41,766 nucleotides of DNA from an uncultured Candidatus Saccharibacteria bacterium (GCA_964560655.1 CAZLLR010000002.1:1-41766); one strand, 5' to 3'. Positions 18,272-41,719 are shown, counted from the stretch's first letter. The notes: generated by a model from the letters alone, not told the origin. A program made the numbers and translations.

Positions 18272-18281
18272 TTTATTTTTC

Positions 18282-19562
18282 TTATTTTAGAAATATTTTT
18301 CTTATTTTTCCAGAATCTATGTCTTTGCCGTCTTCCGGTATGATACCAGCTATACTTATATTCTCAGGGACGAACAATTCTTTCGCTACTTTCATAATAT
18401 CATTTGCAGTAACTTTTTCAATCTTTTTAATATATTCTTCTGGTGTGAGTATTTTACCTCCGAATAGCTCCTGCTCTCCATAGAAATCCGCCACGTATTC
18501 AGTATGCTCAAAATCCAACGCCGTTTTGCCTCTTATGTATTCTTTAGCAGAGTAAAGTTCTTCTTTTGTAACCTTACGAGTCTTAAAATCATTTAATAAT
18601 TTAGAAATTACCTGGGAGGCAGTATAGATCTTATCTTTTGGAACACCGACACGTATGCGTAAGTACCCTGAATCTTCATACTCTATATTAATAGCGCCAA
18701 CATAATAAGTCAGACCTCTTTTCTCCCTCAACTCAAAAAAGAGTCGTGAAGACATATTGCCACCTAGGATAGTCGATAGCACCTCAAGTATATATTTTTT
18801 CTTATCTACTGTGCTATATGCTCGCACACCAATAGCTATATGAGATTGATCACATTTTTTATTTTTTATCGATATTTTTATATCTTTCTGTCTTACTTTA
18901 GGGGAAGGAGTTTTATTTACTTTTTTATTTTTTAATTTATTAAAAACTTTTTCAATATTTTTTAACGTTTTTTTCTCTTCAATATTCCCAGCGACAACTA
19001 CTATCATATTATTAGGGGTATATCTTACTTGTCTGTACTTCACAATATCATTTCGTGAGATATTATTAACACTTTCTTTGGTGCCTAAAACTCGCATGCT
19101 ATGGGGATTATTTCCATAAATCATACTATCAAGATCCCTAGCAACCAGACTAGAAGGTTGGTCTTCATATGTTGAGATTTCTTGCAAAATTACACCCCTT
19201 TCTTTTTCTATCTCCTTAGCGTTAAAAATTGGATTCAAGACCATATCAGAAACAACATCAAGTCCGATATCAAAATCCTTTGAGGCTGACTTCACCCAAA
19301 AGCCAGTAATCTCTTTACTAGTGAAAGCATTATTGTCTGCACCTATCCTATCAAGCTCCTTACTTATTGTTCCTGGCTTAGGACGCTTCTTAGTACCTTT
19401 AAATACTAAATGTTCTAAGAAATGAGAAATACCATTAAGTCTCTTATCTTCATCTTTGGCACCTGTCTTTACAAGAACTTGAAAAATAACCGCTCCCGTA
19501 TTCTTCATCGGGACGATAACGACCCGCAAGCCATTTTTTAGAGTATGTTTTTCGAACTGCAT
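18282..19562 (-). CDS. M16-family (pitrilysin/insulinase-like) zinc peptidase
   Basis: ORF of 426 aa with the inverted zincin motif HFLEHLVFKGT (HxxEH) and a downstream E in the NAFTSKE region. Confidence 0.85.
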   Translation of the reverse strand: MQFEKHTLKNGLRVVIVPMKNTGAVIFQVLVKTGAKDEDKRLNGISHFLEHLVFKGTKKRPKPGTISKELDRIGADNNAFTSKEITGFWVKSASKDFDIGLDVVSDMVLNPIFNAKEIEKERGVILQEISTYEDQPSSLVARDLDSMIYGNNPHSMRVLGTKESVNNISRNDIVKYRQVRYTPNNMIVVVAGNIEEKKTLKNIEKVFNKLKNKKVNKTPSPKVRQKDIKISIKNKKCDQSHIAIGVRAYSTVDKKKYILEVLSTILGGNMSSRLFFELREKRGLTYYVGAINIEYEDSGYLRIRVGVPKDKIYTASQVISKLLNDFKTRKVTKEELYSAKEYIRGKTALDFEHTEYVADFYGEQELFGGKILTPEEYIKKIEKVTANDIMKVAKELFVPENISIAGIIPEDGKDIDSGKIRKIFLK

Positions 19563-19591
19563 AAATTAAATTTTAACATATATCTTTAAAT

Positions 19592-19628
19592 AAAAACACC
19601 GCTAGTTTATTAAGCTAGCGGTGTTTTT
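19592..19628 (-). terminator. rho-independent terminator after glyQS
   Basis: aaaaaCACCGCTAG tttattaag CTAGCGGTGttttt. It is symmetric, starts 10 nt after the glyQS stop, and has a T-run on the minus strand. Confidence 0.8.
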
Positions 19629-19637
19629 ATAGTCTAT

Positions 19638-21020
19638 CTATTTACTTAAACTATCTTTTATTATGTCTACTAATTTACTAATCTCTACTCTCTCCTGCTT
19701 ACCGGTATCTCTATCTCTTAGAGTGGCTGTGCCATCTTCTAATGTATCGAAGTCTACGGTGATACAAAAGGGTGTTCCTATCTCGTCTTGCCTCCTATAC
19801 CTCTTGCCTATGTTACCGTTAGTATCAAACATTATCTGAGGAATATCTTTTTTAATCATGTCATAGACCTCACGCGCTTTATTTACAAGGTCGGGCTTGT
19901 TCTTAAGAAGAGGAAATACCGCCGCCTTAACAGGCGCTATAGACGGCTTAAGTTTAAGGAAAACGCGAATTTCTCCTTCCATCTCATCTTCGGAATATGC
20001 ATCTAACAACACAGCAAAAACTAACCTGCCAACACCACCGGAAGATTCAATAATATGTGGGATAAATCTTTCACCTGTCTCTTGATCTAGATAATCAAGC
20101 CTTTTACCACAACCTTTTGAATGTTGTGTTAAGTCATAATCCCCACGCGCATGTATCCCTTCAATTTCATCGAATCCCCAAGGGAATTTATATTCAATAT
20201 CATAAGCCTCTTTAGCATAGAAGACTAAATTTTCATGCTTCTTCCATCTTAAATTTTCATTATTAATACCAATTTCTAAAATAGAATTCCATCTATATTC
20301 TCTTAATTTTTCATATTCTTTCATTTCATCATCTGGCCTTACAAAATATTGCATTTCCATCTGTTCAAATTCTCTTCCACGAAAAATAAACTGCCGAGGC
20401 GAGATTTCATTTCTAAATGCTTTACCAATCTGCGCAATACCAAAAGACAATTTTAAGTGCATCGAATCTGAGACATTTTTATAGTTCACATAAATACCCT
20501 GACATGTCTCACCTCTTAGGTACGCGGGCTCAGAATTATCACCTGTAAAATCGCCTAAATTACTCTTAACCAAGAGATTAAATTTCCTTATTTTTGTAAA
20601 ATTTTGCTTACCACATTTTGGGCATTTTAATTTATCTTTATTCTCTGAAAAAATCTTATTAATCTCTTCTTCGCTCATCTTTTCATCTGCGGAGACACCA
20701 ATCTCCTCCAGCATCTTATCTGCACGACTTCTAGTATTGCATTCTCGGCATTCTACCAGCGGGTCTGAAAAACCTTTTACATGCCCGCTGGCTTCCCAAA
20801 TCTTAGGACTCATAAAAATACTCGAATCTAATCCAACAATATCCTCCCTATCATAAACCATTTTTTTCCACCATTGTGCTTTTAGATTATTTTCAAGTTC
20901 GACTCCAAATGGACCGAAGTCATAAACACCTGCAAAACCACCATAAATTTCTGACGACGGGTATATAAAACCACGGCGTTTTGCTAAAGATACAATTTTT
21001 TCCATTTTTGATGTTTCCAT
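19638..21020 (-). CDS. glyQS: glycine--tRNA ligase (dimeric class II, GlyQS type)
   Basis: ORF of 460 aa. SSEIYGGFAGVYDFGPFGVELENNLKAQWWK, FRNEISPRQFIFRGREFEQMEMQYF, and a C-terminal anticodon-binding domain. Confidence 0.92.
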   Translation of the reverse strand: METSKMEKIVSLAKRRGFIYPSSEIYGGFAGVYDFGPFGVELENNLKAQWWKKMVYDREDIVGLDSSIFMSPKIWEASGHVKGFSDPLVECRECNTRSRADKMLEEIGVSADEKMSEEEINKIFSENKDKLKCPKCGKQNFTKIRKFNLLVKSNLGDFTGDNSEPAYLRGETCQGIYVNYKNVSDSMHLKLSFGIAQIGKAFRNEISPRQFIFRGREFEQMEMQYFVRPDDEMKEYEKLREYRWNSILEIGINNENLRWKKHENLVFYAKEAYDIEYKFPWGFDEIEGIHARGDYDLTQHSKGCGKRLDYLDQETGERFIPHIIESSGGVGRLVFAVLLDAYSEDEMEGEIRVFLKLKPSIAPVKAAVFPLLKNKPDLVNKAREVYDMIKKDIPQIMFDTNGNIGKRYRRQDEIGTPFCITVDFDTLEDGTATLRDRDTGKQERVEISKLVDIIKDSLSK

Positions 21021-21033
21021 ATTTAATATTATA

Positions 21034-22947
21034 TTATTGAACTACTTTTTCTTGTCCTGACTTAAACTTAGGATCATTATCAAGTCTTGTACTTAATACC
21101 CCTTTAACCTTCCTAACTTCCGCATTAACAAAAGAATCTTTTCCTTCAATGACAACTTCCGACACAAGGTTAGGTGCCGAGCCAACTTGAGAAAGCGAAG
21201 GAAGAAGTCCTATCTGAAAAGATATATCCCTTGCCGGGCTCAGTATGCCCGTCCCAGCTAAAAGAGTACCTGCCTTCCACACGACCTCTCCTGTATTCTT
21301 ATCATAAGATATCAGAGCATCTTGAGGGGAGATAGCTCCGGCCCAATCAACATAAGAAGGCAGGAAGGCTCTTACTGTAGCATTTTCAATGTCATTTGTA
21401 GAATTAGTAAGTGACCATACTATAGTATAAGTTGTCTTCTCCCCAGCCTTAGGTGGCAACAAACCAGTATTAGCGAAAGCTCCTTCATAATAAAGTGCCT
21501 GTGATGCAAACTGAAGATTAGAAGCTATCTTTATATCTTTCTTAGTTGTACTCCTTACGTCAGTATCTCCTGCACCACCCACTGCCTTTTTACCAAACAT
21601 AGTCGTATCTAAAGACACTATAAAATTTTTATCATTTACACTTTTTTGAATTAGGCTATCAAGCATAGAAAATGTAAAACTAACCTTACCCTCTTCCCCT
21701 GGCTCTATAAATCTAAACTCTGGCACTGACGAAGCGTTCCAGACTAGAGCCTGATCTGATGTCCTAAAAAAGCCATTTACTGGAGAGATGGTCTGAAAAT
21801 TAGCAGCTTGACCGATTATCTTAGTCTCAATAGTGCCATTCTCTATTCTGACAGGTAAATTATTCCTCCAAAATATATCCACTCTCATAATATCACCCAA
21901 AGAAGAAACGTTATCCTTGTCGTCATTTCCATTTATAAATACAGCAAGGTCTAAAAGCATCTTCTTGAGGACAACACTATCTGAAGCTTCACCGTATACA
22001 TCAAGCTCATTGTTGCTATTGATAACTCCTATTTGAGCTAGGAAGCCTTTCTCGTCTAAGTCCCTGCCATCAACAATTCCTTTAATCTTTACGACTCGCT
22101 TTTTCCCGGGTTCTAAAGTCCCTATGTTCCACATATTATCCTTACCGGAAGATGTCTTCGGATTACTTTCTTTAAATTGGAACCCTGGTGGATACTCCAC
22201 TTGCAAGACAAGGCCATCAATAATACTTTCTGAATTAGAAACATATTCCACCTCAATGTCCATCTCTTGCCTAGCATTTGCCTCTAATGGAAGCTTCACA
22301 GTAACTTCTATTGGCGACTCAAAGATTGTAATAATTTTCTTCTCTTCTTTAGTAAAAATAGCGTTAGAACCAGTGAGTCTATATTCCAAAGTGGCGGTTA
22401 TAACCTTCTCACTTAACGTGCTACCAAACAAAACTATATCAATATTCTCAACAGCCTTACCTCCTGGTTCTATCTGCCCTAGCGGATATCTATGCTTCAA
22501 AGAATTGTCTTTACCTTCTAGCACGCGAGTACCTGATGGATATTCTAAGATAAGGTCAGCATACTCAAGAGGAGCATTATTGTTATTGCCTACTATTATC
22601 CTCCAACTGTTAAGTTCTCCTCCTGAGATACTCTCTGGCCCCTCAAAAACAATCTCAATATCGCCAGAAGAAACGAAGTTAAAACCCTTATCCCAAAGAT
22701 AGGCTGTAGCAAGAAGAGAAACGGCAAAAAATATCCCCGCAAAAAGAAGAGTTAACCGCATCATCTTAGAAATAAAAGTTTTTTTCTTTGCCATTTTTAA
22801 AGGAGGATTCCACTTCGTCTTACCAGTATCCACTTCGGGTTTAAGTTTCAAGCCTAGGGCTGGACGCTTTGTTCTCTTCTTAAAAGAAGCTCCTTTCTTA
22901 TAGAGCCTCATCTTTAATTTTTCTATATTATTATCTTCTCCTGACAT
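21034..22947 (-). CDS. hypothetical membrane-anchored protein with several Ig/CARDB-like beta-sandwich segments
   Basis: ORF of 637 aa. It has a basic cytoplasmic N-terminus, one TM helix (LTLLFAGIFFAVSLLATAYLW) and a long beta-rich ectodomain with repeated G-x-E-x-G motif blocks. I recognise no catalytic motif. Confidence 0.55.
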   Translation of the reverse strand: MSGEDNNIEKLKMRLYKKGASFKKRTKRPALGLKLKPEVDTGKTKWNPPLKMAKKKTFISKMMRLTLLFAGIFFAVSLLATAYLWDKGFNFVSSGDIEIVFEGPESISGGELNSWRIIVGNNNNAPLEYADLILEYPSGTRVLEGKDNSLKHRYPLGQIEPGGKAVENIDIVLFGSTLSEKVITATLEYRLTGSNAIFTKEEKKIITIFESPIEVTVKLPLEANARQEMDIEVEYVSNSESIIDGLVLQVEYPPGFQFKESNPKTSSGKDNMWNIGTLEPGKKRVVKIKGIVDGRDLDEKGFLAQIGVINSNNELDVYGEASDSVVLKKMLLDLAVFINGNDDKDNVSSLGDIMRVDIFWRNNLPVRIENGTIETKIIGQAANFQTISPVNGFFRTSDQALVWNASSVPEFRFIEPGEEGKVSFTFSMLDSLIQKSVNDKNFIVSLDTTMFGKKAVGGAGDTDVRSTTKKDIKIASNLQFASQALYYEGAFANTGLLPPKAGEKTTYTIVWSLTNSTNDIENATVRAFLPSYVDWAGAISPQDALISYDKNTGEVVWKAGTLLAGTGILSPARDISFQIGLLPSLSQVGSAPNLVSEVVIEGKDSFVNAEVRKVKGVLSTRLDNDPKFKSGQEKVVQ

Positions 22948-22998
22948 TTTCTGATTATATCACAAAATATAATCTAATCGAACAGCTTTCGATTAAAT

Positions 22999-23583
22999 CT
23001 ATAATTGACTCTCTTTTAACCCATTTTTTATCCTCTCTGTTGCCTCCTTTTTGAAACTGGCTATTTCGTCGACAATCTCCAAAGAAAGTTCTCCCTTAAA
23101 GAATTCCTCTAAACTATCCGCCTCACCAACATAGCCAAGATTATCTAACATCCTAAGTGCCATAATAATCTCAAAATTAACTAAGGATTTCTTATCAAAA
23201 GAATTTTTATCTAAGAAGAGTATACCCTCCTCAACAACAGACCAAAGCTTGTCATTCCTCTCTTCTCCTTGGACTAATCGAGAAAGCAGTCTTGTAATTT
23301 TATTTAATGATACGTACTTGCTGTTATCTTTCCTTAAATTAAGCCCTGGAATTTCTTTGGCGTCTATTATCCTCCATGACTCTTTTCCACGGATAAATGA
23401 AAAATTCGCGTAAGATAAGTCGTCAAGACTGTATCTGAGTTTTGATTTTAGGAGCCTGACTCCATTTGCTGATGCCCTCAAGCCACCAAGACCAGCAGTA
23501 TAAAAACTGATAAACTGATCCGCTTCACCAAAATTTTTCTTATCAAGGACAATTCCGTCCGTCTGATATATATAATGAGACAT
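22999..23583 (-). CDS. recO: DNA repair protein RecO (short form)
   Basis: ORF of 194 aa. The N-terminal OB pattern GIVLDKKNFGEADQFISFYTAGLGGLRASANGVRLLKSKL is typical of RecO. No Zn-finger cysteines are seen. Confidence 0.65.
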   Translation of the reverse strand: MSHYIYQTDGIVLDKKNFGEADQFISFYTAGLGGLRASANGVRLLKSKLRYSLDDLSYANFSFIRGKESWRIIDAKEIPGLNLRKDNSKYVSLNKITRLLSRLVQGEERNDKLWSVVEEGILFLDKNSFDKKSLVNFEIIMALRMLDNLGYVGEADSLEEFFKGELSLEIVDEIASFKKEATERIKNGLKESQL

Positions 23584-24591
23584 CTATTTATATTTTTCAT
23601 TTATAATTTTTTTTGCTGCTTCCCAAAACTCAGGTCTATTATGTTTCTCTTTCATCCAATACCACCACTCTGTACCCCATAAATAAATCTCTTTAAACCC
23701 GGTCTTCTTAGCGTACTCTATATTGCTATAAAACTGATCTATATTCATAGATATATCTTGCTCAGAAAGAGGTGTCTCGTAGATCATCTTAGGGCCCCAC
23801 GGCTCCGCCTGAAGTTCACTTATTATGACTGGTTTGTCAGAATAAAATAAATGGAGAAGATTTGTCTTCATCCAGAAAAAATTAGGTGGAATTGGATATT
23901 TAAAATAACCAAAGTATTTATTCCAAATCACTCTATAGACACTAGTGCCAAATATATCGGCTCTCCTTGCAGTAGAAAACCAAGTGCCGAGTTCTCCGCT
24001 ATCTGTCATTATAATGGGGTGTTTAGGGTCAAGAGATCGAACTACCTTAATCTCTTCATCTAAGAAACCTCTATCAAACCTGTCGCATTCGCCAAAGTGC
24101 AAGAAAGGTTCATTTTCAACTTGCCAAGCATAGATGTTGTCAAAATTCTTATATCTCCTGACTATCTTATCTATAAGATGTGTAATCTCGTCCTTCTTTT
24201 TATCTCTACTTAATGGGTCTACCCACTCTGGAATCCGGCACTCAGGCCAGCGAGGCAACTTCTGACCTATGGCTAACACTAACCTAACATTCTTTTCCCT
24301 AGCCATCTCTATCATCCAGTCATAATCTTCAAAATTATAGACATTCTCCTCTGGCTCTATATCGTCCCAATACAACGGGATCCTTACCACATCAGGCTTT
24401 AATTCTTCTATCATCGCGCTGTAAACTTCTCTAAAATCCAAGCCCATATCTTTACTAAAAGATATGGAAAAAGTCACACCCCAAACATAATCAGTGCTAT
24501 CAACTACGACAGGGGTAAAAAATAAAACAGTAAAAACCCCTAATATCAAAAATAAGATTACAACTAAAGTTATGATTATTTTCTTTACCAT
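23584..24591 (-). CDS. membrane-anchored clan GH-A (TIM-barrel) glycoside hydrolase, GH5/GH42-like
   Basis: ORF of 335 aa with an N-terminal TM helix. VRIPLYWDDIEPEENVYNFEDYDWMIEMAREKNVRLVL, acid/base motif AWQVENEP, and candidate nucleophile ISELQAEPWG. Confidence 0.65.
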   Translation of the reverse strand: MVKKIIITLVVILFLILGVFTVLFFTPVVVDSTDYVWGVTFSISFSKDMGLDFREVYSAMIEELKPDVVRIPLYWDDIEPEENVYNFEDYDWMIEMAREKNVRLVLAIGQKLPRWPECRIPEWVDPLSRDKKKDEITHLIDKIVRRYKNFDNIYAWQVENEPFLHFGECDRFDRGFLDEEIKVVRSLDPKHPIIMTDSGELGTWFSTARRADIFGTSVYRVIWNKYFGYFKYPIPPNFFWMKTNLLHLFYSDKPVIISELQAEPWGPKMIYETPLSEQDISMNIDQFYSNIEYAKKTGFKEIYLWGTEWWYWMKEKHNRPEFWEAAKKIINEKYK

Positions 24592-24595
24592 TAGA

Positions 24596-25516
24596 TCAGA
24601 AGGCTAAGACCATTAAACCTATACCTATTAAAAATACTGCGACAACTTTCTGTAAAAAACATTTCCAATGATGAACTTCTTCTTTTATCGCGCCGGGTGA
24701 TACTCTGACAACAGCCCCGGCTATTATAAGAATCGCCACATATTGGATACCTTGCAAAGCATTTACTAAAGTGACACTACCAAGAGATATAGCATAATTT
24801 AAAAGCAAGAAACCTATACCAGCCAAAAGCTTATTGAAGATAAATAAGCTCCCTCCTTTTGCTCCAACGTTCTTCGTGGTGTGAAAAATTGCCCTTCTAA
24901 AGCCCTTAGGGATTATAAGAAGAAATGCGGCAAGAAAACTTCCTACTCTAGTCCAAACAAAAGTCGAAACAAATGGCTGATTTGAAAAAACAAATTTCGT
25001 TAATACATAAAAGATGGCGAACAAAAGAGCCGCCAGGATTGAAATCTCAATCTTCTTCCAAGTGTATTTCTTAAATGCCGAATCATTATGGAGGTGATGC
25101 TCTTTTCTCCTGGCTAAGATGAGGATCCCTCCTGCAAAGAGAAGAAAAAAAGCTATCACCTGATGCCAAAATAATCTCTCTCCTAAAAATAAGAAAGAAA
25201 GCAAAAATACAAAAATAGGAATAAAAGCGCCAACGATAGGAGCAATACGAGACACCTCATCTTTACTCAGAGCGATAAAGAATGCCAGAAGTGCACAGAG
25301 AAAAACTAATCCGACAAGGAAGCTCAAGAAAAGCTGCCCTAAACCGGGCCATACTAAACTAAAAGGAGCAAAGGCTAAGGCAAATATACTAAAGAGACCC
25401 ACATAAAATGTGTAGGCTATCGGGTTCGGAATATTCTTATCCAAAAGGAGTTTATCAATAACCGAATTAACGGCATTTATTATATAAGCTACAAAAGCAA
25501 CGAAAACCCAAGTCAT
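24596..25516 (-). CDS. EamA/DMT-superfamily membrane transporter
   Basis: The ORF track gives 24596..25558. The probable start is MTWVFVAFVAYIINAVN (25516). There are about 9-10 TM helices with two-fold internal EamA-like symmetry. Confidence 0.6.
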   Translation of the reverse strand: MTWVFVAFVAYIINAVNSVIDKLLLDKNIPNPIAYTFYVGLFSIFALAFAPFSLVWPGLGQLFLSFLVGLVFLCALLAFFIALSKDEVSRIAPIVGAFIPIFVFLLSFLFLGERLFWHQVIAFFLLFAGGILILARRKEHHLHNDSAFKKYTWKKIEISILAALLFAIFYVLTKFVFSNQPFVSTFVWTRVGSFLAAFLLIIPKGFRRAIFHTTKNVGAKGGSLFIFNKLLAGIGFLLLNYAISLGSVTLVNALQGIQYVAILIIAGAVVRVSPGAIKEEVHHWKCFLQKVVAVFLIGIGLMVLAF

Positions 25517-25554
25517 ATTTATATCATTATACCTTAATTCAAAATCTAGGTAAA

Positions 25555-25584
25555 ACAAAAGGCGAGATTTTTAAAAATCCCGCC
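25555..25584 (-). terminator. rho-independent terminator after ORF 25597..26040
   Basis: On the minus strand: GGCGGGATTTttaaAAATCTCGCC followed by ttttgtttt. Confidence 0.6.
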
Positions 25585-25596
25585 TCCGAAAAACTG

Positions 25597-26040
25597 TTAG
25601 TAAAGCTTTATATCACCATGGACATAGCCAGCAATACTTAGCTCTACTTCCTTATCGGCCACTATAAAAAAGTGGCAATCTTCAGGGCCCATCCTCATAG
25701 AGAAAGGTCCGCCAGAAACATGTCTAGTCGCGGAAGAAACTTTACAAACTCCAAATCTCTTACTCCAGAATCCAACATGAAACTCTATATCCTCCGTTGA
25801 TATACCCCTATCAATAATAGTAGGTCTGAGAACTATATACTTCTTCCATGTAAAATACTTTATGAGCCAATTTATTGGCCCGAACATGAAAGATTGTGAT
25901 GGGCTCAAAATTTGATCTCCTTTCCCTAAGACAAGGTCTGACCAAAAACCAAAGTCCTTGTCGAGCACATCATCATGGTAAGAGCCTTCTCTATATACCA
26001 CATCCCTCCACCACTGCAAAAAAATCGTCTTCATTTGCAA
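25597..26040 (-). CDS. hypothetical soluble protein, no recognisable family
   Basis: ORF of 147 aa, Trp/Phe-rich, with no TM helix or signal peptide. It has its own terminator and lies between GH1 and the DMT transporter. Confidence 0.5.
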   Translation of the reverse strand: MQMKTIFLQWWRDVVYREGSYHDDVLDKDFGFWSDLVLGKGDQILSPSQSFMFGPINWLIKYFTWKKYIVLRPTIIDRGISTEDIEFHVGFWSKRFGVCKVSSATRHVSGGPFSMRMGPEDCHFFIVADKEVELSIAGYVHGDIKLY

Positions 26041-26111
26041 TCCTCCCTTTTTATTATTTTAAAGAATTTTTATCTTTTTAAATTATATCACGATTATATT
26101 AGACAGTCAAA

Positions 26112-27359
26112 TCAAATCTCAACCTCATTAGCTTCACAGGTTTTTGCATACTCATACGCGCTTGGGCGGATTTTTCTCTCGAGTGTCTTATAATCTATCT
26201 CCACGAGTCCAAACCTCGGCCAGAAGCCTTTGTCCCACTCGAAGTTATCAAGTAAAGACCAGTAAAGATACCCTCTAACATCCAGCCCTTCTTCTGTCGC
26301 CATGGCAATACTCTTGATATTTTCCTCTATAAACCATGCTCTGTATTTATCTCCCCTGTCAGCTAAACCATTCTCCGTTATATAGACTGGCTTATGATAC
26401 TTCTTTATATCTAATAATCCATAATACAAAGCACTTGGGTAAAGCTCCCAACCCATATCAGACAATCTCTCATCATCATTTTTATTAAAGCCGTAATTTA
26501 TCCTGTTGTGGTGATAATTGTTAAGACCAATAAAATCTTGATATTCATCTATGAAACTGAAGAAGGAGAAGTTCCACACCCAGTCAACTATTTTTTTAAG
26601 TAATTTATTTATATATCTTCCTTTATATGCTTCAAAATAAACATTATGTTTGGATATGCCAACTTGAGCTTCTCTGTTTGTTTCTTTGATTACATTAAAA
26701 GCTCTCTTGTGGGCTTTAACCAAGTTCCAAAATACTAAAATAAAATATATAGGATTCCTCTTTTGAGGAGGCCAGGCACCCTTCAAGTAAGAATGAGTAG
26801 CATAAACCAGTGGCTCATTAAGAGTAATCCAGAACTTTACATCATCTCCAAAAGCCTCAGCCATCTTCTTTGTATATCTATCAAAATAATCCACCACTTC
26901 TCCAGAGCGCCAACCTCCTTTATCTTTAAGCCATACTGGAATAGGCCAATGCCAAAGAGTAACAAATGGCTCAATATTACGGGAGAGTAAGGCCTTTACT
27001 ACATTTTTATAATGCTCTATCTCTTTATCATCAAACCTTCCTTCTTCTGGCTCTATGCGTGACCATTCTATAGAGAGACGGAAAGAGTTTTGCCCAAGAG
27101 ACTTCACTATGTCAAAGTCTTCTTCGTATCTGTTGTAATGATCGCAAGCTCTACCGGAGATATAGTTCTCCGGATTCTCCGCTTCATCTTTTATACTCTC
27201 CCATATAGGCAAATGACCGAAACTCTTCTTGGCTTTTTTGGCTAGTCTCTCAGCGTTCTTCTTCTCCCAGAGGGACCAATCATTCACATTACCACCTTCT
27301 ACCTGATGACTTGCTGTCGCACTCCCCCATAAGAATCCTTCTGGAAATTTAAATTTCAT
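26112..27359 (-). CDS. GH1 beta-glucosidase/beta-galactosidase
   Basis: ORF of 415 aa. FPEGFLWGSATASHQVEGG, acid/base TLNEP, nucleophile ITENG, and WSLLDNFEW. Confidence 0.92.
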   Translation of the reverse strand: MKFKFPEGFLWGSATASHQVEGGNVNDWSLWEKKNAERLAKKAKKSFGHLPIWESIKDEAENPENYISGRACDHYNRYEEDFDIVKSLGQNSFRLSIEWSRIEPEEGRFDDKEIEHYKNVVKALLSRNIEPFVTLWHWPIPVWLKDKGGWRSGEVVDYFDRYTKKMAEAFGDDVKFWITLNEPLVYATHSYLKGAWPPQKRNPIYFILVFWNLVKAHKRAFNVIKETNREAQVGISKHNVYFEAYKGRYINKLLKKIVDWVWNFSFFSFIDEYQDFIGLNNYHHNRINYGFNKNDDERLSDMGWELYPSALYYGLLDIKKYHKPVYITENGLADRGDKYRAWFIEENIKSIAMATEEGLDVRGYLYWSLLDNFEWDKGFWPRFGLVEIDYKTLERKIRPSAYEYAKTCEANEVEI

Positions 27360-27433: not shown

Positions 27434-30400
27434 CTAAAAATTTTCTGTTACAATTATTATCGTAAATTCTAAACTATCCAACTTTAACACTTCTCCGTTT
27501 TCCAAATCTTTAAACTCGACGGCACGAGCATTAACTATCTTTTTAAATTCACTCTCAAATTTCTTTACCAAATTTTCTCCTGAAGAATTAGTCTTCACAG
27601 ATACAGATATTTTATCATCTGGAGTTAGTCCAGCCTTTTTCCTTAAGTTTTGGACGAACCTTACTATATCCCTAAATTGCCCTTCAGCTATAAGCTCTGG
27701 ATTTAATTCTAGATCTAATTTTACATCATTCTTAATGCTAGAGCTAAAGATAATATCTTTAACATTTACCTCATCTTTTACAAGCTCAAGTAAACCATCT
27801 TTTCCCTTTAGCTTTTCATTTTTAACAGTCAGTTTCTGCAAAGGTTGTCTTACTTTCACCCCCGCTTCTGCACGCGCCTCAAGCCCAAGAGAGACAATCT
27901 TTCGTATCTCTTTCATATCGTATAGAATATCAGCATCTTTCGAAGATTTATCCATACCAAATGCCTCGAGCACTTTCTTTACTAAAGAATCTTTAGCAGG
28001 CCACTCATCTAAATGAACGCTCTCTTTGTTGCCACCTAGTAATTTATATAGTCTATCTGATATAAACGGCATAAAAGGCGCTATAACTTTAGAAAACTCC
28101 AACAATACAAACCTTGTAGTATAAATAGCGCTATCCTTGTTTTCTCCTTGGTCTTTAAACCTATCTCTTGAGCGTCTAATATACCAAGTAGAAAGATCAT
28201 CTACAAAATTAATAATGGGTCTTGTTGCTTTATCTAATTCATACTTCTCAAGACTTAACGTTACTTCTTGTGTTAATTCATTAAGTCTAGAAATAATCCA
28301 CTTATCTAAAACATTTGTATTTTTATCAATTTTATTTATCATCTCACTTTGGATAGTTTTTTTAAGATGACTCCCTGAGTCCGCATACATGTCATAGAAA
28401 CTATAAACATTCCACATTCGTAAAATTACTTTCTTATATATTTCATCAACTCCTTTTTCTGAAAAATTAAGACTTTCTGCGCGTACCACAGGTGAAGATA
28501 AAAGATAAAGTCGAAGTGCGTCAGCACCATGCTTATGGATAATCTCTACAGGGTCAACATAGTTCTTAAGACGCTTGCTCATTTTTTGACCATCTTCCGC
28601 TAAGATTATCCCGTTTACAATCACATTTTTATAAGCAGGCTTATCAAAGAGAGCCGTAGACAAAACAAGCAGTGTATAAAACCAACCACGCGTCTGATCT
28701 AATCCTTCCGCTATAAACTCTGCTGGGAGATTTTTCTCCACCTCTTCCTTATTCTCAAAAGGATAATGTGCTTGCCCGTAAGGCATAGAGCCAGATTCAA
28801 ACCAACAATCAAACACATGGACAACTCGCTTCATCTTCCCTCCGCAAGGGCAATCAAATGCGACATTGTCTATATAAGGTCTATGCAAATCAACTTCATA
28901 ATTCTCATTATGAGGAAGTGGTGAAAAAGAAAGATTTATCACCTCCCCTGTCTCTATATAATCATCTCCTTTTTCCTCCTTCATTTTTACCGACTTTTCC
29001 ACATCTGAACCAAGCGCACCAGCAAATAAAAGCCATAGGGGGTATTCGTGACTTATTATCAAGATATTCTTACCTTGATATTTCTCTTCAATATCATACA
29101 AGAACTCTGACATTCTATTTTTAAGTTCAATCAAATTCTCTCCTTCAGGTGGAGCCTTTATGAATTTTTCTTCCATAGAAGAAAAGAATTCATGATAATC
29201 ACTTGGTTTCTTTCCATCAAAAGTTCCGGTGTTTAATTCTCTAATACGCTTATCAAAAATTATTTTTTCTTTATCATATCCTATTTCATTTGCTACAATC
29301 TCAGCCGTCTCGCGTGTCCTTACAAAGTCAGAAGAAAAGATAATGTCGATATTTTTATTTTTTATTTGTTGAGCGACTTCTTTCACCTCAACTCTCCCTT
29401 TCTCTGTAAGATGATGTGGGTTATCTACCTTAGAGCTTATGATATTTTTTTTATTATGTTCTGAGTCGCCATGACGCATTGCAAAATATTTATTGCCAGA
29501 TGTTTTAACATTCCTCCTAATATCTTCTACTGAACCTATAACCTTCAAATCATCGCACTTCTCACACTTCCACACAGGAAGTGACGCTCCCCAAAAACGA
29601 GTCCGAGATATTGCCCAATCCCTAGCACCTTCTAACCATTTACCAAAACGCCCTCCTTTTATATGAGCTGGCACCCAATCAATCTTCTCGTTATTTTTGA
29701 GAAGTTTATCTTTTATAGCTGTAACCCTGAGAAACCAAGAAGAAGATGCGTAGTTTAATAAAGGAGTATCACATCTCCAACAATGCGGATAAGAGTGAAT
29801 TATTTTTTTCTTAGCATATAGATTACCCCTGTGAGCCAAATATTTTATTATCTCAATATCAGCTTCTTGATGATTCTCCTTCGGTTTTACAAACTTACCG
29901 GCAAAGTCCTTCACTTCACTCTTAAATCTCCCGTCTCCTGTGACATGTTGGACAAAAGGAAGCGCGTATTCTAGCGAGGTATTCATATCATCCTCTCCAA
30001 AGGCGGGCGCTATATGCACTATTCCAGTCCCCTCGTCTGTTGTTACAAAGTCCGCAGAATAAATTTTCCATCCATTTTCTCTATTCTCCAAATCTTCTTT
30101 CTCCGAGTAATAATCAAAAAGTGGTTTGTAACTTTTACCAGCTAAGGCAAAACCTTTGAAAGTTTCTACTATCTTATTCTCTCCCTCTATCTCACCAAGG
30201 CGTTCTTTTGCTAGGATCAATTTCTCACCGTCTTTCTCAATCTTCACATATTCAACATCAGGGTTCACCGCTAAGGCAACGTTACCGGGCAGTGTCCATG
30301 GGGTAGTCGTCCAAGCAAGAATGAAGGTTCCTGGTTCTTCAGTAATTTCGAATTTAGCCGTCACTGAAATATCAGTAATATCCTTATACCCTTGAGATAC

Positions 30401-31012
30401 TTCAAAGTTTGCAAGAGTCGTCTCACAACGCGGACAAAGATGCATCGGCTTGTATCCTTCATACATAAGCCCTTTGTCGTAGAGTGTTTTAAAGACCCAC
30501 CATACAGACTCCATATAGTCGGCCCCCATGGTCTTATAACTAGCCTCCATATCAACGAAGCGACCCATCCTAGGAATTATTTTTTTCCATTCGTCTGTAT
30601 CACGGACTACCACATTTTTTGCGGCACTATTAAACTTATCCAGACCTAAATCTTCGATGTCTTTCTTTGCCTTAAGTCCGAGTTCTTTCTCAACTACATT
30701 TTCAACTGGGAGACCGTGGCAATCCCAACCCCAACGACGAGGAACCCGATATCCTCGCATCGTCTTATAACGTGGAATAGCGTCTTTGATAGTGCTAGCT
30801 AAGATATGTCCATAATGAGGTGGCCCATTAGCAAAGGGTGGTCCATCATAGAAAATAAATTCACCTAAAGGGGCGTCCTTTTCAATAGATTTCTTGAAAA
30901 TATTATTATCTTGCCAAAACTTCAATATATCCCTTTCTGCCTCAGCTGGACTTTTGTCTTTTAGATTATCATCCATTCTTAAGATAATACTATTATAAAC
31001 ACTAAAATTCAA
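27434..31012 (-). CDS. ileS: isoleucine--tRNA ligase with an inserted histidine-phosphatase (PGAM-like) domain
   Basis: ORF of 1192 aa. The probable start is MDDNLKDK at 30976. The HIGH motif is PHYGH. Also present: editing-domain TTPWTLPGN, WAISRTRFWG and KMSKR. About 200 aa at nt 28901..29512 read YFAMRHGDSEHN...SSDFVRTRETAE...RELNTGTFDG...IISHE. Confidence 0.9.
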   Translation of the reverse strand: MNFSVYNSIILRMDDNLKDKSPAEAERDILKFWQDNNIFKKSIEKDAPLGEFIFYDGPPFANGPPHYGHILASTIKDAIPRYKTMRGYRVPRRWGWDCHGLPVENVVEKELGLKAKKDIEDLGLDKFNSAAKNVVVRDTDEWKKIIPRMGRFVDMEASYKTMGADYMESVWWVFKTLYDKGLMYEGYKPMHLCPRCETTLANFEVSQGYKDITDISVTAKFEITEEPGTFILAWTTTPWTLPGNVALAVNPDVEYVKIEKDGEKLILAKERLGEIEGENKIVETFKGFALAGKSYKPLFDYYSEKEDLENRENGWKIYSADFVTTDEGTGIVHIAPAFGEDDMNTSLEYALPFVQHVTGDGRFKSEVKDFAGKFVKPKENHQEADIEIIKYLAHRGNLYAKKKIIHSYPHCWRCDTPLLNYASSSWFLRVTAIKDKLLKNNEKIDWVPAHIKGGRFGKWLEGARDWAISRTRFWGASLPVWKCEKCDDLKVIGSVEDIRRNVKTSGNKYFAMRHGDSEHNKKNIISSKVDNPHHLTEKGRVEVKEVAQQIKNKNIDIIFSSDFVRTRETAEIVANEIGYDKEKIIFDKRIRELNTGTFDGKKPSDYHEFFSSMEEKFIKAPPEGENLIELKNRMSEFLYDIEEKYQGKNILIISHEYPLWLLFAGALGSDVEKSVKMKEEKGDDYIETGEVINLSFSPLPHNENYEVDLHRPYIDNVAFDCPCGGKMKRVVHVFDCWFESGSMPYGQAHYPFENKEEVEKNLPAEFIAEGLDQTRGWFYTLLVLSTALFDKPAYKNVIVNGIILAEDGQKMSKRLKNYVDPVEIIHKHGADALRLYLLSSPVVRAESLNFSEKGVDEIYKKVILRMWNVYSFYDMYADSGSHLKKTIQSEMINKIDKNTNVLDKWIISRLNELTQEVTLSLEKYELDKATRPIINFVDDLSTWYIRRSRDRFKDQGENKDSAIYTTRFVLLEFSKVIAPFMPFISDRLYKLLGGNKESVHLDEWPAKDSLVKKVLEAFGMDKSSKDADILYDMKEIRKIVSLGLEARAEAGVKVRQPLQKLTVKNEKLKGKDGLLELVKDEVNVKDIIFSSSIKNDVKLDLELNPELIAEGQFRDIVRFVQNLRKKAGLTPDDKISVSVKTNSSGENLVKKFESEFKKIVNARAVEFKDLENGEVLKLDSLEFTIIIVTENF

Positions 31013-31017
31013 ATATT

Positions 31018-31060
31018 AAAAAGAAAAACCCCCAGAAACCACTTACGCGATTTCTGGGGG
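31018..31060 (-). terminator. rho-independent terminator overlapping the end of the ThyA-like gene
   Basis: On the minus strand: CCCCCAGAAA tcgcgtaagtgg TTTCTGGGGG tttttcttttt. The 5' arm encodes the final PPEI residues. Confidence 0.8.
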
Positions 31061-32446
31061 TTTGGTTGATAAAAGAATTTCTGCTTTTTGTAGTTCTCTA
31101 CCTACATAAAGAGCATTCTGAGAATCAGAGATAAAGAAAGAAACTTCTTTACTAAGTTTCTCAGCCTTATCTCCATAAAATATCTGGAGAAGCTCTCCTC
31201 CAGGAGAAAAATGTCTTACAACTATTTTCTCTTTTTCTACCCTAATCTCAAAATTACCTTTTGAGTCAGGATAAAATTTCCCTGGGCGAACTTTACTTAA
31301 GAGGCTATCTATTTTTACCCAATCTCTCTCATAAACATGTGCCGAACCAGAGGTGATAGAAAGTTCTCCTAGCTGAATTCCAGGTTTTCCAAGACTTACC
31401 CTTACCTCTTCTAAAAGCTTGGCTTGAAAATAACGCAGAGCAGCTACATTTAACGGCCACCCTCCGAACATATCATTAGTCCTGATATAAGCCCACTGGT
31501 GTAAAGCTCCCCCAGTAAGCCTTAAGTGGATGGTTACTATACAAGGAGGATCCTCCATATTAACGGACCCTCCATATACATAAGGAGCCCATAAAGAGAT
31601 AATGGCGCGAAATGTCTCATTCTTCTTTTTAAGCGCGTCAACTATTATCTTTATTTGATTACCAAACCCATGACGGATAATGTGACCATAACGATAAGAA
31701 AGGTCTTCTGGCTCATCACCCATCCAGAAAGCCTCCCAGTATTCTTTTATATACCCACCATCATATTCAGGATGAGGGATAGAATCAAAATCATAAGGAT
31801 CCTGCCCAGTTATTACCATCGTAAGCTGCCATAATTCCTGCCTTCTATGCCCCTCTGAATCTGCACCTGTGATGTGTCCAAAGAGGCGAATTTCTTTCAG
31901 AAGTTTATGATACCCCTCCTTAATTGTCCTAGCTCTTATTAAATGCCCAGAAAAAGAAGAAGGGAAGATCTCATTTTTTGGCTCAGGTAATGAAACAAAT
32001 ATAGGTTTTAATTTATCTCCACCTTTCAAAGCTTCTTTGAAGCTCCCCTCATCAATTTTTCCTCTTATATCCATAGGATTTGAAAAGATGATTTTTACTT
32101 GAAGGAGAAACCTATCAATATGCTCCTTTTTTAGAGATATTTTTTCATAGAGAGACTCATCAGATAAAAGACTGGAGATAGCTACTTTTGATTTACCTAA
32201 CTCTGTTCCGCTAACTATCAAGTATCTTAAAGTTGGATTTGAAAGATAATTTCTTATCAATATCCCTAGACCATATACAGAATAAAGGTTACCAACAACA
32301 GCGACTTTATCCATCAAGTTCGCTAAATATTTCTTTGCAAAGGTCTCTCGTGGAGACCACAGGGTACAAACTCCGATATCGGCTTCAAGATTGCCTATCA
32401 CGAGTTCCTTCTTTGAAAAGACCGGCCAATCTTTTTTCATCTTCAT
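31043..32446 (-). CDS. thymidylate-synthase (ThyA-fold) protein with an MtrA-like N-terminal domain and an extra C-terminal domain
   Basis: ORF of 467 aa. The ThyA core is at about aa 165-385: FRAIISLWAP, nucleophile PPC, IRTNDMFGGWPLN, GSAHVYERD. The N-terminal roughly 160 aa (DIGVCTLWS...KVAVVGNLYSVYGLGILIRNYLSNPTLRYLIVSGTELGKS) resemble the MtrA family. The C-terminal roughly 75 aa end in NALYVGRELQKAEILL. Confidence 0.7.
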   Translation of the reverse strand: MKMKKDWPVFSKKELVIGNLEADIGVCTLWSPRETFAKKYLANLMDKVAVVGNLYSVYGLGILIRNYLSNPTLRYLIVSGTELGKSKVAISSLLSDESLYEKISLKKEHIDRFLLQVKIIFSNPMDIRGKIDEGSFKEALKGGDKLKPIFVSLPEPKNEIFPSSFSGHLIRARTIKEGYHKLLKEIRLFGHITGADSEGHRRQELWQLTMVITGQDPYDFDSIPHPEYDGGYIKEYWEAFWMGDEPEDLSYRYGHIIRHGFGNQIKIIVDALKKKNETFRAIISLWAPYVYGGSVNMEDPPCIVTIHLRLTGGALHQWAYIRTNDMFGGWPLNVAALRYFQAKLLEEVRVSLGKPGIQLGELSITSGSAHVYERDWVKIDSLLSKVRPGKFYPDSKGNFEIRVEKEKIVVRHFSPGGELLQIFYGDKAEKLSKEVSFFISDSQNALYVGRELQKAEILLSTKPPEIA

Positions 32447-32462
32447 TTACCTCCATTCCAAA

Positions 32463-33065
32463 TTAAAGTTTAAATTTATAGTTAGTTCTATCTCCAACTT
32501 CATAGGCCATATACTTAGCTATCTCCATTATCCTTTTAGGAGTTAACTGGATAAAACTTAACGAGATACCAGCCTCGAGAAGTTTTCTCTCGCTAGCCCT
32601 CTTCTCATCAATAGTTAAGGCGGTATTTTCAAGATAACCTTTCCAAACCTTAACAGCATACACCTTATTCGTGACTAACATATCCTGAGTACACTTTGGA
32701 CAAGGCATATTGGTCAGATAGATGATAGAATCTTTAACCCCGTCAGGAAAACAAGGGGCATGAGCATTAGTTTCCGCATGAACAGCCTGGCAATACATTT
32801 TAAACCTTTCTTTCATCGACTCTATATTGCCACCGTTTTTCTCCACTTCTTCGGTTGCTAAATACTCATAGTAACAGTACCCTAGTTCTCTGCAGCTTTT
32901 TATGTCTCTTGCTGCTCCATTATATCCAGAGCCAACTATTCTATGGTCTTTAACAATTAAACAGCCAACTCCTCTTTTTAAGCAAGAGTGCCGCGTACCA
33001 CAACTTATAGCCTGAAACATAAAGATTTCATCCCAGCTTGGCCTATTTTTCATATCAACCTCCAT
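32463..33065 (-). CDS. dCMP deaminase (cytidine/deoxycytidylate deaminase family)
   Basis: ORF of 200 aa, with an alternative start at 33053. The zinc motifs are HAETNA and PCPKC. It has the WDEIFM N-terminal block typical of ComEB/dCMP deaminases. Confidence 0.8.
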   Translation of the reverse strand: MEVDMKNRPSWDEIFMFQAISCGTRHSCLKRGVGCLIVKDHRIVGSGYNGAARDIKSCRELGYCYYEYLATEEVEKNGGNIESMKERFKMYCQAVHAETNAHAPCFPDGVKDSIIYLTNMPCPKCTQDMLVTNKVYAVKVWKGYLENTALTIDEKRASERKLLEAGISLSFIQLTPKRIMEIAKYMAYEVGDRTNYKFKL

Positions 33066-41240: not shown

Positions 41241-41247
41241 TTTGTTT

Positions 41248-41712: not shown

Positions 41713-41719
41713 TATATAT

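Follow-up and report, generated by a model that had tools for sequence, protein, structure and literature searches.

A type 2 isoleucyl-tRNA synthetase carries a phosphatase domain inside its catalytic domain

In the 41,766-nt contig CAZLLR010000002.1:1-41766 from an uncultured Candidatus Saccharibacteria bacterium (GCA_964560655.1), which was analyzed over its full length and is referred to as the window from here on, the ileS gene encodes a type 2 (eukaryote-like) isoleucyl-tRNA synthetase (IleRS) in which a histidine phosphatase (HP) domain is nested between the two half-sites of a zinc motif. We are highly confident in the architecture, the authenticity, and the conservation of this nested fusion. 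On balance, and from comparisons of sequences and predicted structures, we also favor the broader reading that the nested domain is an active phosphatase and that its activity is coupled functionally to that of the synthetase.

The gene is a single uninterrupted open reading frame (ORF) on the minus strand (27434..31012), with 1,192 aa counted from a TTG codon, and the residue numbering of this ORF is used throughout. The real start of ileS is likely Met13 (30976), which gives a product of 1,180 aa that is identical to a database protein (P0121). An earlier prediction, made from the sequence alone and referred to as the original prediction, described a colinear class I IleRS with the motifs PHYGH, TTPWTLPGN, WAISRTRFWG, and KMSKR and with no stop codon or frameshift at either end of an inserted segment. 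Translation of the window ORF confirmed all four motifs, and the ORF contains neither a stop codon nor a frameshift. Conservation of individual residues was counted in a set of 52 homologues, which are the full-length single ORFs of 1,100 to 1,350 aa among the 80 fused loci described below. The gene and the motifs located by translation are as follows:

27434..30976, minus strand: ileS, type 2 (eukaryote-like) IleRS with nested phosphatase, 1,180 aa from Met13
30806..30820, minus strand: HIGH-type signature PHYGH
30281..30307, minus strand: editing motif TTPWTLPGN of connective peptide 1 (CP1)
28571..28585, minus strand: KMSKR signature loop

In Pfam searches with the whole protein, tRNA-synt_1 matched in two pieces around His_Phos_1, followed by Anticodon_1 and DUF5915, which is the split that the original prediction had expected. 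The insert notwithstanding, the protein scores 887.6 bits against the NCBIfam ileS equivalog TIGR00392 (cut-off, 621.4 bits). The protein retains intact HIGH, KMSKR, and CP1 editing motifs as well as an intact anticodon-binding domain and intact C-terminal domains, and T236, T237, W239, T240, L241, and N244 of the editing motif and the KMSKR lysines K810 and K813 are present in 52/52 homologues. Using phmmer, type 2/eukaryotic IleRS matched at E values of 1e-211 to 1e-235, while type 1 enzymes matched only at ~1e-68 to 1e-92. The C terminus is of the DUF5915 type (Pfam), as opposed to the zinc-binding C-terminal domain of bacterial type 1 enzymes. A full-length AlphaFold2 model based on 84 sequences had a predicted local distance difference test (pLDDT) score of 88.6 and a predicted template-modeling score (pTM) of 0.83, with blocks of 89 to 96 for the insert and both junctions. 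The top folds found by Foldseek for the body were Priestia megaterium IleRS2 (8c8v; TMt, 0.81) and 1ile (TMt, 0.90), with IleRS2 ranked first. These profile and model comparisons support that the IleRS body belongs to the type 2 enzymes, in agreement with every feature tested, and that the ileS product is a working-looking type 2 IleRS. A second ileS gene was not found within the 41.8-kb window.

The insert replaces a short loop between the zinc half-sites of CP3

The original prediction placed an insert of about 200 residues at 28901-29512, nested in the zinc knuckle of the synthetase. Alignment to IleRS without the insert from the candidate phyla radiation (CPR) and to human cytosolic IleRS (9w01) mapped the insert to within three residues of these positions. 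The segment and its surroundings are as follows:

28892..29518, minus strand: inserted segment, aa 499-707, 209 aa
29555..29566, minus strand: first zinc half-site of CP3, C483-E-K-C486; Cys in 41/52 homologues
28844..28852, minus strand: second zinc half-site of CP3, C721-P-C723; Cys in 41 and 38 of the 52 homologues
28892..28936, minus strand: C-terminal linker of the insert, NLSFSPLPHNENYEV; consensus P-[LI]-P-H-N-x-N-[YF]-E-L

The insert is made up of a short variable N-terminal linker, the HP domain, and a conserved C-terminal linker. Residues 499 and 708 of the window protein align with residues 489 and 498, respectively, of the human chain, and insert-less CPR IleRS read 'IGSIKEL-EKLSGKKIK-DLHRP.ID' at the insertion point. 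Approximately 209 residues take the place of a CP3 loop of ~9 residues, and the corresponding gap in human and insert-less CPR IleRS (~9 residues) holds no comparable homologous domain. The mapping against type 2 IleRS and the AlphaFold modeling that had been proposed as checks gave this loop replacement together with a confident fold. The two Cys pairs had been expected to lie a few tens of residues apart in ordinary IleRS; they are separated by ~35 residues in insert-less relatives versus 235 residues in the window protein. The host site is the CP3 subdomain of IleRS, which has a zinc motif in Thermus thermophilus IleRS (PMC7191050), in line with the predicted location in the zinc knuckle. 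All four CP3 zinc cysteines are jointly absent in 11 of the 52 fused homologues, in which the insert is still present.

Among eight regions of the protein that were compared, the C-terminal linker had the highest mean pairwise identity (0.73); the values for the two Rossmann halves were 0.68 and 0.72, for the anticodon-binding domain 0.56, for the insert 0.51, and for the C terminus 0.43. Within this linker, P700 is kept in 52/52, H701 in 50/52, N702 in 48/52, and E706 in 51/52 homologues, and the linker is modeled confidently (pLDDT blocks of 92 to 93). It is peculiar to the fused form, being absent from both free-standing HPs and insert-less IleRS, and may serve in rigid docking or form part of a pocket.

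The insert is predicted to be an active branch-1 histidine phosphatase

The HP domain and the residues of its predicted active site are located as follows:

28991..29482, minus strand: His_Phos_1 (PF00300), aa 511-674; Pfam E 4.6e-33
29471..29476, minus strand: Arg513-His514 of the RHG motif; 52/52 fused homologues and 84/84 rows of the alignment of 84 sequences (A3)
29318..29320, minus strand: Arg565, second phosphate-binding arginine; 52/52
29237..29239, minus strand: Glu592, predicted general acid; 52/52 in fused proteins
29048..29050, minus strand: His655, distal histidine of the phosphate pocket; 52/52

Going by what is known of branch-1 histidine phosphatases, we take His514 to be the phospho-accepting nucleophile. 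The match to PF00300 scores 115 to 120 bits (gathering threshold, 21.7 bits), with an E value of 1.4e-34 when the insert alone is the query, and the AlphaFold model of the insert alone has a pLDDT of 91.6. The best Foldseek matches of the insert were PspA (4ij6/4ij5), HFP (9mmh), and PhoE (1h2e), with template-modeling (TM) scores of 0.71 to 0.76, and the insert superposes on structures of PspA/iPSP, HFP, PhoE, TIGAR, Rv2419c, CobC, and dPGM with TM scores of 0.70 to 0.76 at ~25% identity. The insert also contains the PhoE-like motifs 'RE.N.G.F.GK' and 'P.GE[NS]'. Based on its profile matches and modeled fold, the insert is a branch-1 histidine phosphatase of the PF00300 family.

The five residues R513, H514, R565, E592, and H655 are invariant in the 52 full-length fused homologues, as are T536, G539, S561, and E625, while N520 is kept in 49/52; at the position of Glu592, free-standing homologues have Asp or Glu. 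The catalytic residues are also invariant in the 84-sequence alignment, the members of which are 57 to 82% identical to the window protein. Together with the confidently modeled fold, this conservation argues for a live module rather than a decaying insertion, as the original prediction had proposed. A catalytically dead structural spacer, or else an intein or other selfish element, would be in agreement with the frequency of large insertions in CPR proteins, with the IS200-type and DUF559 endonuclease-like segments in some IleRS, and with the conserved His-Asn in the C-terminal linker, which is superficially like the end of an intein. We consider this explanation highly improbable because the catalytic residues are invariant, the fold is that of a histidine phosphatase and not of a HINT domain, and the whole protein is modeled as one integrated structure. 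An intein in particular was rejected, since His-Asn is followed by E, D, R, K, or Q and never by Cys, Ser, or Thr, and the N-terminal junction lacks a nucleophile.

Several more specific identities were tried against NCBIfam and rejected. The insert falls short of the models for PspA (70.8 to 75.3 bits versus 350) and CobC (74 to 79 bits versus 162.9), which it resembles in fold only, and of those for SixA (39.4 bits versus 74.5), GpmB (72 to 77 bits versus 261), dPGM_arch (88 to 91 bits versus 225), and the remaining dPGM models (21 to 54 bits versus 305 to 421). In E. coli dPGM, the mutase-specific substrate residues are Arg90/Tyr92, Arg116/Arg117, and the Asn after the distal His. In the insert, E592 is followed by a variable L/V/I-N-T rather than R-H-Y, the two residues after H655 are E-Y and not G-N, and 'F..K.PP' stands where dPGM has 'RRSYD.PP'. 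With the dPGM-defining residues unconserved and all mutase equivalog cut-offs missed, the domain is probably a phosphatase rather than a mutase, and we describe it as an unassigned phosphatase of the PhoE/PspA/CobC-like kind.

The nested fusion is widespread and authentic

To survey relatives of the nested fusion, genomes were scanned using one representative per GTDB species and a six-sequence alignment of the insert and junction as the query. The species-representative genomes contain at least 584 relatives, and all 80 loci examined match across the IleRS side of the junction. These fused loci derive from Wolfe-, Nomura-, Campbell-, Vogel-, and Taylorbacteria as well as from metagenome-assembled genomes labeled 'Paceibacterota' and 'Minisyncoccia', and among them are a single-cell genome (L017) and a record with the title 'chromosome: 1' (L061; OY970290.1). 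In a search with the full-length protein, the best 120 matches were 56 to 82% identical to the window protein, and every one of them contained PF00300. The homologues come from CPR/Patescibacteria lineages, consistent with the affiliation suggested by the original prediction.

Because the same junction recurs in 80/80 examined loci, the fusion is not an assembly artifact. The idea of an assembly chimera, or of a frameshift artifact joining two genes, has nothing specific in its favor apart from fragmented ileS calls on some public contigs (L173 and L174), and its probability is practically negligible: identical in-frame junctions are found in 80 loci and 120 database proteins from independent assemblies, the breaks in L173 and L174 lie on contigs in which neighboring genes are broken too, and a break in a further locus (L172) is a run of N. 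The fusion appears to be old and vertically inherited in Paceibacteria/Parcubacteria. The G+C content of the insert is 0.335 versus 0.380 in the remainder of ileS; because this difference is small and the fusion is old, we do not read it as a sign of recent transfer.

We note that the fused ileS is split into three to five gene calls in L173 (3942-7016) and L174 (3448-7074). The neighboring genes for IF3 and SIS on these contigs are also split, and indel errors in the assemblies are the likely cause, as opposed to genuinely split synthetases. Similarly, two short 'PF00133+PF00300' proteins on long contigs (P0006 and P0033) were rejected as split synthetases, being broken gene calls with adjacent genes split too. 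The fused copy from Nealsonbacteria (P0013/L172) was rejected as a pseudogene without KMSKS, since its gap is a run of N, i.e., a scaffold gap, and KMSKS follows after it.

Free-standing homologues lie directly upstream of insert-less ileS

The closest free-standing HP homologues are proteins of ~190 to 200 aa with 40 to 48% identity. In 5/5 loci examined, the HP gene is located between argS and an insert-less ileS (919 to 956 aa), after which come a small gene and recO, and one of these five loci has two tandem HP genes. A metagenome scan using an alignment of free-standing HPs yielded 80 loci, nine of which were fused IleRS. Counting the 56 free-standing metagenome loci with at least 300 nt of downstream sequence, ileS starts at most 45 nt past the HP stop codon in 47, with frequent overlaps of 1 to 4 nt, and 104 to 1,400 nt downstream in 7 (in two of these behind a second tandem HP gene), while 2 have no ileS downstream. 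On the fused side, no second HP was found within ~6 kb in any of 54 loci, and argS lies within 2.7 kb upstream of the fused ileS in 26 of 47 loci. HP occurs either as a free neighbor of ileS or as a domain nested within it, and none of the 54 fused loci has both. The nested HP appears to be the fused counterpart of the free gene directly upstream of insert-less ileS in the array argS-HP-ileS-recO.

In the window, argS is gone from the position upstream of ileS, and neither argS nor a second phosphatase copy was found in the window. The remaining part of the neighborhood is as follows:

22999..23583, minus strand: recO, remnant of the argS-(HP)-ileS-x-recO neighborhood by comparison with relatives

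Between ileS and recO, the window has four minus-strand genes (23584-27359), which encode a GH1 beta-glucosidase, a 147-aa ORF without a Pfam match, an EamA transporter, and a glycosidase-like protein; relatives have one small gene only. The four genes thus resemble an insertion that interrupted the conserved array locally.

The nested HP belongs to a clade of its own that is separate from the ordinary 176-aa bacterial HPs. In a neighbor-joining tree of HP sequences, fused (53/53) and free (65/65) sequences each formed a clade, with bootstrap values of only 30 to 54%, and in a tree of the IleRS body, the fused and insert-less types are interleaved. The insert of the Nealsonbacteria copy (P0013) is 52% identical to a free-standing HP (P0053) versus 43% to the nearest fused insert, but its C-terminal linker resembles that of the main clade; this insert may reflect an independent second insertion at the same CP3 site (site A below).

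Phosphatase domains occur at further sites and on further partners

In an exhaustive profile-free search of 1.84 billion cluster representatives, 128 matches were obtained at E <= 1e-30. The best 150 representatives comprise 110 IleRS/ValRS-like proteins, 37 free-standing HPs, one Sua5/YrdC-HP (P0051), one ArgRS-HP (P0315), and a 289-aa protein in which HP is the only recognized domain. Each recognized second domain in these 150 is an aminoacyl-tRNA synthetase (aaRS) or Sua5. Although an HP on the N terminus of IleRS would be the simplest fusion of an upstream gene, it was found in 0/110 fused representatives. The arrangements include the following:

Window clade (104 HP copies): IleRS with HP at site A, in CP3 between the zinc half-sites
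P0366 and P0367: IleRS with CP3 intact; HP lies at site B, past 'CWFESGSMPYA', and at site C, where the anticodon-binding domain begins
P0351: IleRS with HP at site A', which follows the second Cys pair, as well as at sites B and C
P0400 and P0450: IleRS with an uninterrupted catalytic domain and one HP at site C
P0256: ValRS-like protein (best NCBIfam match, valS) with four HP domains at two sites
P0452: IleRS that lacks HP and has a tandem pair of HAD phosphatase domains at site B

The P0366 cluster is represented on six contigs of up to 1.06 Mb. The named relatives of the IleRS with two or three HP domains (P0366, P0367, and P0351) are Gracilibacteria or Peregrinibacteria, and among P0366 relatives labeled Gracilibacteria, Peregrinibacteria, or Peribacteria, a single HP at site C is the commonest form. 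PF00300 is present in ~107 of the best 120 P0366 relatives, and no HP was found in the nearest non-CPR IleRS2, e.g., one labeled Verrucomicrobia. One multi-HP IleRS (L178, 8001-12260) lies on a 1.06-Mb contig together with genes for DAHP synthase, PurA, POR, and a 1,476-aa SLH protein. The ValRS-like P0256 (L175/L176, 366-3851) has one HP after 'SPQWFIMV' and three in tandem after 'IPVWYDK', a count that is tentative because the 3.9-kb contigs have low coverage and the ORF ends within the fourth domain. The HAD domains of P0452 contain the motifs 'FFDFDGVL' and 'FFDNDGVL' and are flanked by 'CWFESGAMPYA' and 'ADFIAEGLDQ'; this protein has a nonhomologous phosphatase where its relatives carry HP.

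In L177 (6001-8070; P0315), HP is located on the C terminus of ArgRS, and recO follows directly with no ileS between; the downstream synteny of this locus matches window positions 17216-23583, with recO, DUF11, a class II aaRS, an M16 peptidase, and AI-2E common to both. In L082 (977-2140; P0051), the threonylcarbamoyl-AMP (TC-AMP) synthase Sua5/YrdC of the N6-threonylcarbamoyladenosine (t6A) pathway is fused to the same HP clade, and HP occupies the C-terminal place in which Sua5 proteins normally bear the SUA5 domain.

CPR IleRS also host nested domains that are unrelated to HP. A GNAT domain is found in CP1 or after HP, and P0179 and P0392 combine GNAT with HP; a P-loop kinase (AAA_33/AAA_18/Zeta_toxin) is found at site B or C, as in P0363 and P0468. 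Further nested domains are a DUF559 endonuclease-like domain (CP1), an IS200-type Y1 transposase (CP1), and a Ser-hydrolase, alpha/beta (site B). Some of the proteins with extra nested domains (P0179, P0392, P0363, P0468, P0301, and P0442) have 1,750 to 1,860 aa. The nested GNAT, P-loop kinase, Ser-hydrolase, and HAD domains, the curated NCBIfam family ileS_w_GNAT, and the ability of GNATs such as MccE and RimL to detoxify aminoacyl-adenylate mimics would fit a nested toolkit for detoxification or self-protection, in which HP would modify an inhibitor or mimic at the IleRS active site. We nevertheless find this explanation improbable because no IleRS inhibitor with a removable phosphate is known, the window protein carries HP only, and HP is near-universal whereas the remaining nested domains are sporadic.

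Possible coupling of the phosphatase to adenylate-forming tRNA enzymes

IleRS converts isoleucine and ATP to Ile-AMP and inorganic pyrophosphate (PPi), transfers Ile to tRNA-Ile with release of AMP, and edits Val. Judged by its conserved motifs, the window polypeptide has two separate catalytic centers. By analogy with the HP family, the second center would pass a terminal phosphoryl group first to His514, giving a phospho-His514 intermediate, and from there to water; the phosphate would be held by Arg513, Arg565, and His655, with Glu592 as the acid that donates a proton to the leaving group.

The observation that HP is nested in, or directly upstream of, ileS in hundreds of related genomes suggests that the two activities are probably linked. 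Phosphatase activity appears to have been recruited repeatedly to adenylate-forming tRNA enzymes (four sites in IleRS as well as ValRS-like, ArgRS, and Sua5/TsaC partners), and we infer that the phosphatase has been selected for production with, and placement beside, such enzymes. We consider it fairly probable that the functional coupling of the phosphatase to the synthetase is real. What IleRS, ValRS, ArgRS, and TsaC/Sua5 share is only the reaction ATP -> X-AMP + PPi followed by the release of AMP, which suggests a shared product as the target, and a diffusible product is suggested by the flexible position of HP, its presence in up to four copies, and its substitution by a nonhomologous phosphatase. 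The phosphatase would then hydrolyze locally a diffusible, phosphate-bearing product common to the partner enzymes, with PPi as the first candidate and AMP as the second, and removal of this product would pull adenylation forward in organisms with minimal metabolism. We put forward PPi or AMP as the substrate only tentatively. A stronger version, which we regard as possible but doubtful, is that HP contributes a true third catalytic step to an aminoacylation machine specific to CPR, as an ancient module, free-standing or nested, that has occasionally been replaced by HAD. Under this version, HP beside the synthetase would act on PPi, AMP, or a phosphorylated tRNA 3' end, and turnover of IleRS in these minimal cells would depend on it.

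Several points weigh against coupling in general or against these substrates in particular. On the substrate side, the insert reaches none of the NCBIfam equivalog cut-offs. Histidine phosphatases are classically phosphomonoesterases, and hydrolysis of PPi by a branch-1 enzyme is plausible chemistry that is not established for this clade; moreover, many anaerobes conserve PPi by means of PPi-dependent enzymes, which disfavors the wasting of PPi. With regard to genome organization, gene overlaps are common in compact CPR genomes, and adjacency alone is no proof of interaction. An essential phosphatase nested in an essential gene is trapped, and its long retention is no evidence of coupling. The varied insertion sites and the free forms need no precise geometry, which fits a diffusible substrate and the absence of coupling equally well, and CPR IleRS that host unrelated nested domains may simply tolerate insertions. 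Finally, tree support for any particular number or direction of fusion events is weak. We also looked for a canonical pyrophosphatase and obtained 0 tblastn matches with E. coli Ppa in 1.46 Mb of loci, in which only ~2 would be expected.

The most serious alternative, which we nonetheless rate as rather unlikely, is that HP is an independent housekeeping phosphatase for a small molecule such as phosphoserine, a sugar phosphate, or a cofactor intermediate, and that it is co-expressed in a translation operon, was fused by proximity and genome streamlining, and has no link to aminoacylation. Its nearest structures are metabolic small-molecule phosphatases (PspA, HFP of the riboflavin pathway, PhoE, Rv2419c, and CobC), the ArgRS-HP fusion is a simple read-through of adjoining genes, and in L177 HP remains with argS while ileS is elsewhere. 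The variable insertion sites and the free form, for which a fixed geometry is unnecessary, and the many unrelated nested domains that CPR IleRS tolerate also fit this alternative. What argues against it is that the recognized partners in the 150 closest representatives, among them ValRS-like proteins and Sua5, all belong to the adenylate-forming tRNA enzymes; that the easiest proximity fusion, HP on the IleRS N terminus, occurs in 0/110 whereas nested insertions are found at at least four sites; that a nonhomologous HAD phosphatase occupies the same site in one lineage; and that few parts of the protein are as well conserved as the C-terminal linker.

HP might alternatively act on RNA ends, freeing the tRNA 3' end of a 2'/3'-phosphate or a (pyro)phosphate or taking part in the healing of broken tRNA, and in this way enable charging of tRNA-Ile. 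The domain is located within a tRNA-binding enzyme, toxins that pyrophosphorylate the CCA end exist, and the AAA_33/Zeta-type P-loop kinase beside HP in P0363 and P0468 recalls kinase-phosphatase end-healing enzymes. However, Sua5/TsaC, one of the fusion partners, does not bind tRNA, up to three or four HP copies at varied sites are ill-suited to a single tRNA end, the structural neighbors are small-molecule enzymes, and a constitutive, lineage-wide trait is unlike a repair or antitoxin function; we judge a role at RNA ends unlikely.

Very unlikely, in our assessment, is a protein phosphatase that acts on the synthetase, e.g., by reversing phosphorylation of the KMSKS-loop serine of the HipA type, or on another phosphoprotein. 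The superfamily does include SixA, PGAM5, and Sts, kinase toxins do target the signature loops of aaRS, and Ser812 of KMSKR is present in 47/52 homologues. However, Ala812 is found in the other 5/52, which retain HP, the SixA model is missed (as above), the closest folds are small-molecule enzymes, and neither the multiple HP copies nor the fusion to Sua5 suits such a role.

A second complete enzyme in the catalytic core of a much-studied aaRS, conserved in much of a major bacterial radiation, would be a striking undescribed feature. The operon and nested patterns, the at least four independent insertion sites, the partnerships with ValRS, ArgRS, and Sua5, and the replacement by HAD together make a testable proposition, namely, that a phosphatase is tied to adenylate-forming tRNA enzymes in CPR. 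If the coupling is true, it would constitute a new accessory step of translation in organisms with minimal metabolism and would also provide a lineage marker and a possible selective target; if the third-step version is true, it would be a previously unrecognized accessory activity of class I aaRS. If the coupling is untrue, the fusion would be a clean example of streamlining that welds neighboring genes into nested fusions. The protein is, moreover, a natural case of domain insertion into an essential enzyme that is of use to protein engineers.

Other features of the window

Directly upstream of ileS, a minus-strand gene (31043-32446) combines an MtrA-like N terminus with a thymidylate synthase domain and PterinBD-DUF4346, and a gene for dCMP deaminase (32463-33065) follows this three-part gene. 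A minus-strand ORF of 1,199 aa (2955-6554) has no Pfam match at E <= 0.001, and its region has the highest G+C content of the first part of the window (0.41 to 0.43 versus ~0.36). A bacterial class A RNase P RNA is encoded at 41243-41713 on the minus strand (138.8 bits, full length, 471 nt versus a 367-position model). No tRNA genes were found in the entire 41.8-kb window.

Comparison with known systems

The original prediction knew of no described fusion of IleRS and a phosphatase. This stands with respect to the literature, in that no description was found in open-access publications; it does not hold for databases, in which such sequences have been public for years. A Wolfebacteria entry (KKR88577.1) was deposited simply as 'Isoleucine-tRNA ligase', and automatic names from the Joint Genome Institute (JGI), e.g., 'isoleucyl-tRNA synthetase/phosphohistidine phosphatase SixA/...', already flag the extra domain. 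The IleRS-HP architecture is neither rare nor new to databases.

The whole body of the window IleRS is colinear with P. megaterium IleRS2 (8C8V), T. thermophilus IleRS (1ILE), and the yeast and human cytosolic IleRS over the Rossmann fold, the CP core, CP1 editing domain, CP2, CP3, the anticodon-binding domain, and the DUF5915-type C-terminal domains. T. thermophilus IleRS has a Cys4 zinc motif in CP3, as does the window protein (PMC7191050). Unlike known type 2 IleRS, i.e., the mupirocin-resistant type, the window protein contains a second enzyme in its CP3 loop. Membership in MupA/MupB was rejected (~760 bits versus a cut-off of 1900).

On the phosphatase side, the small branch-1 enzymes PspA/iPSP (4IJ5), PhoE (1H2E/1EBB), CobC, HFP (9MMH), and Rv2419c have the same fold and the catalytic pattern RHG...R...E...H. 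In contrast to these free phosphatases, the HPs of the window clade lie within aaRS genes or are linked to them genetically.

A precedent for IleRS with an extra enzyme domain is NF040702 ileS_w_GNAT ('isoleucine--tRNA ligase, N-acetyltransferase domain-containing'), in which the window protein was rejected as a member (326 bits versus 1999, no GNAT match). The RNase H/acid phosphatase of the Rv2228c type (NF005567) is a fusion of HP to a nucleic acid-related partner and is among the best NCBIfam matches of the insert, which scores 78 to 82 bits against it versus a cut-off of 326. PFK-2/FBPase-2 and TFIIIC tau55 are likewise bifunctional proteins with an HP domain. The Rv2228c-type protein, PFK-2/FBPase-2, and tau55 are, however, end-to-end fusions, whereas the window HP is nested inside a catalytic domain and has an aaRS as its partner.

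The closest parallel in design is the CP1 editing domain of IleRS, ValRS, and LeuRS, which is also a hydrolase inserted in a connective peptide of the catalytic fold. CP1 is universal and hydrolyzes aminoacyl esters, whereas HP is unrelated to it in fold and chemistry and, in the searches described above, turned up only among CPR and CPR-like relatives.

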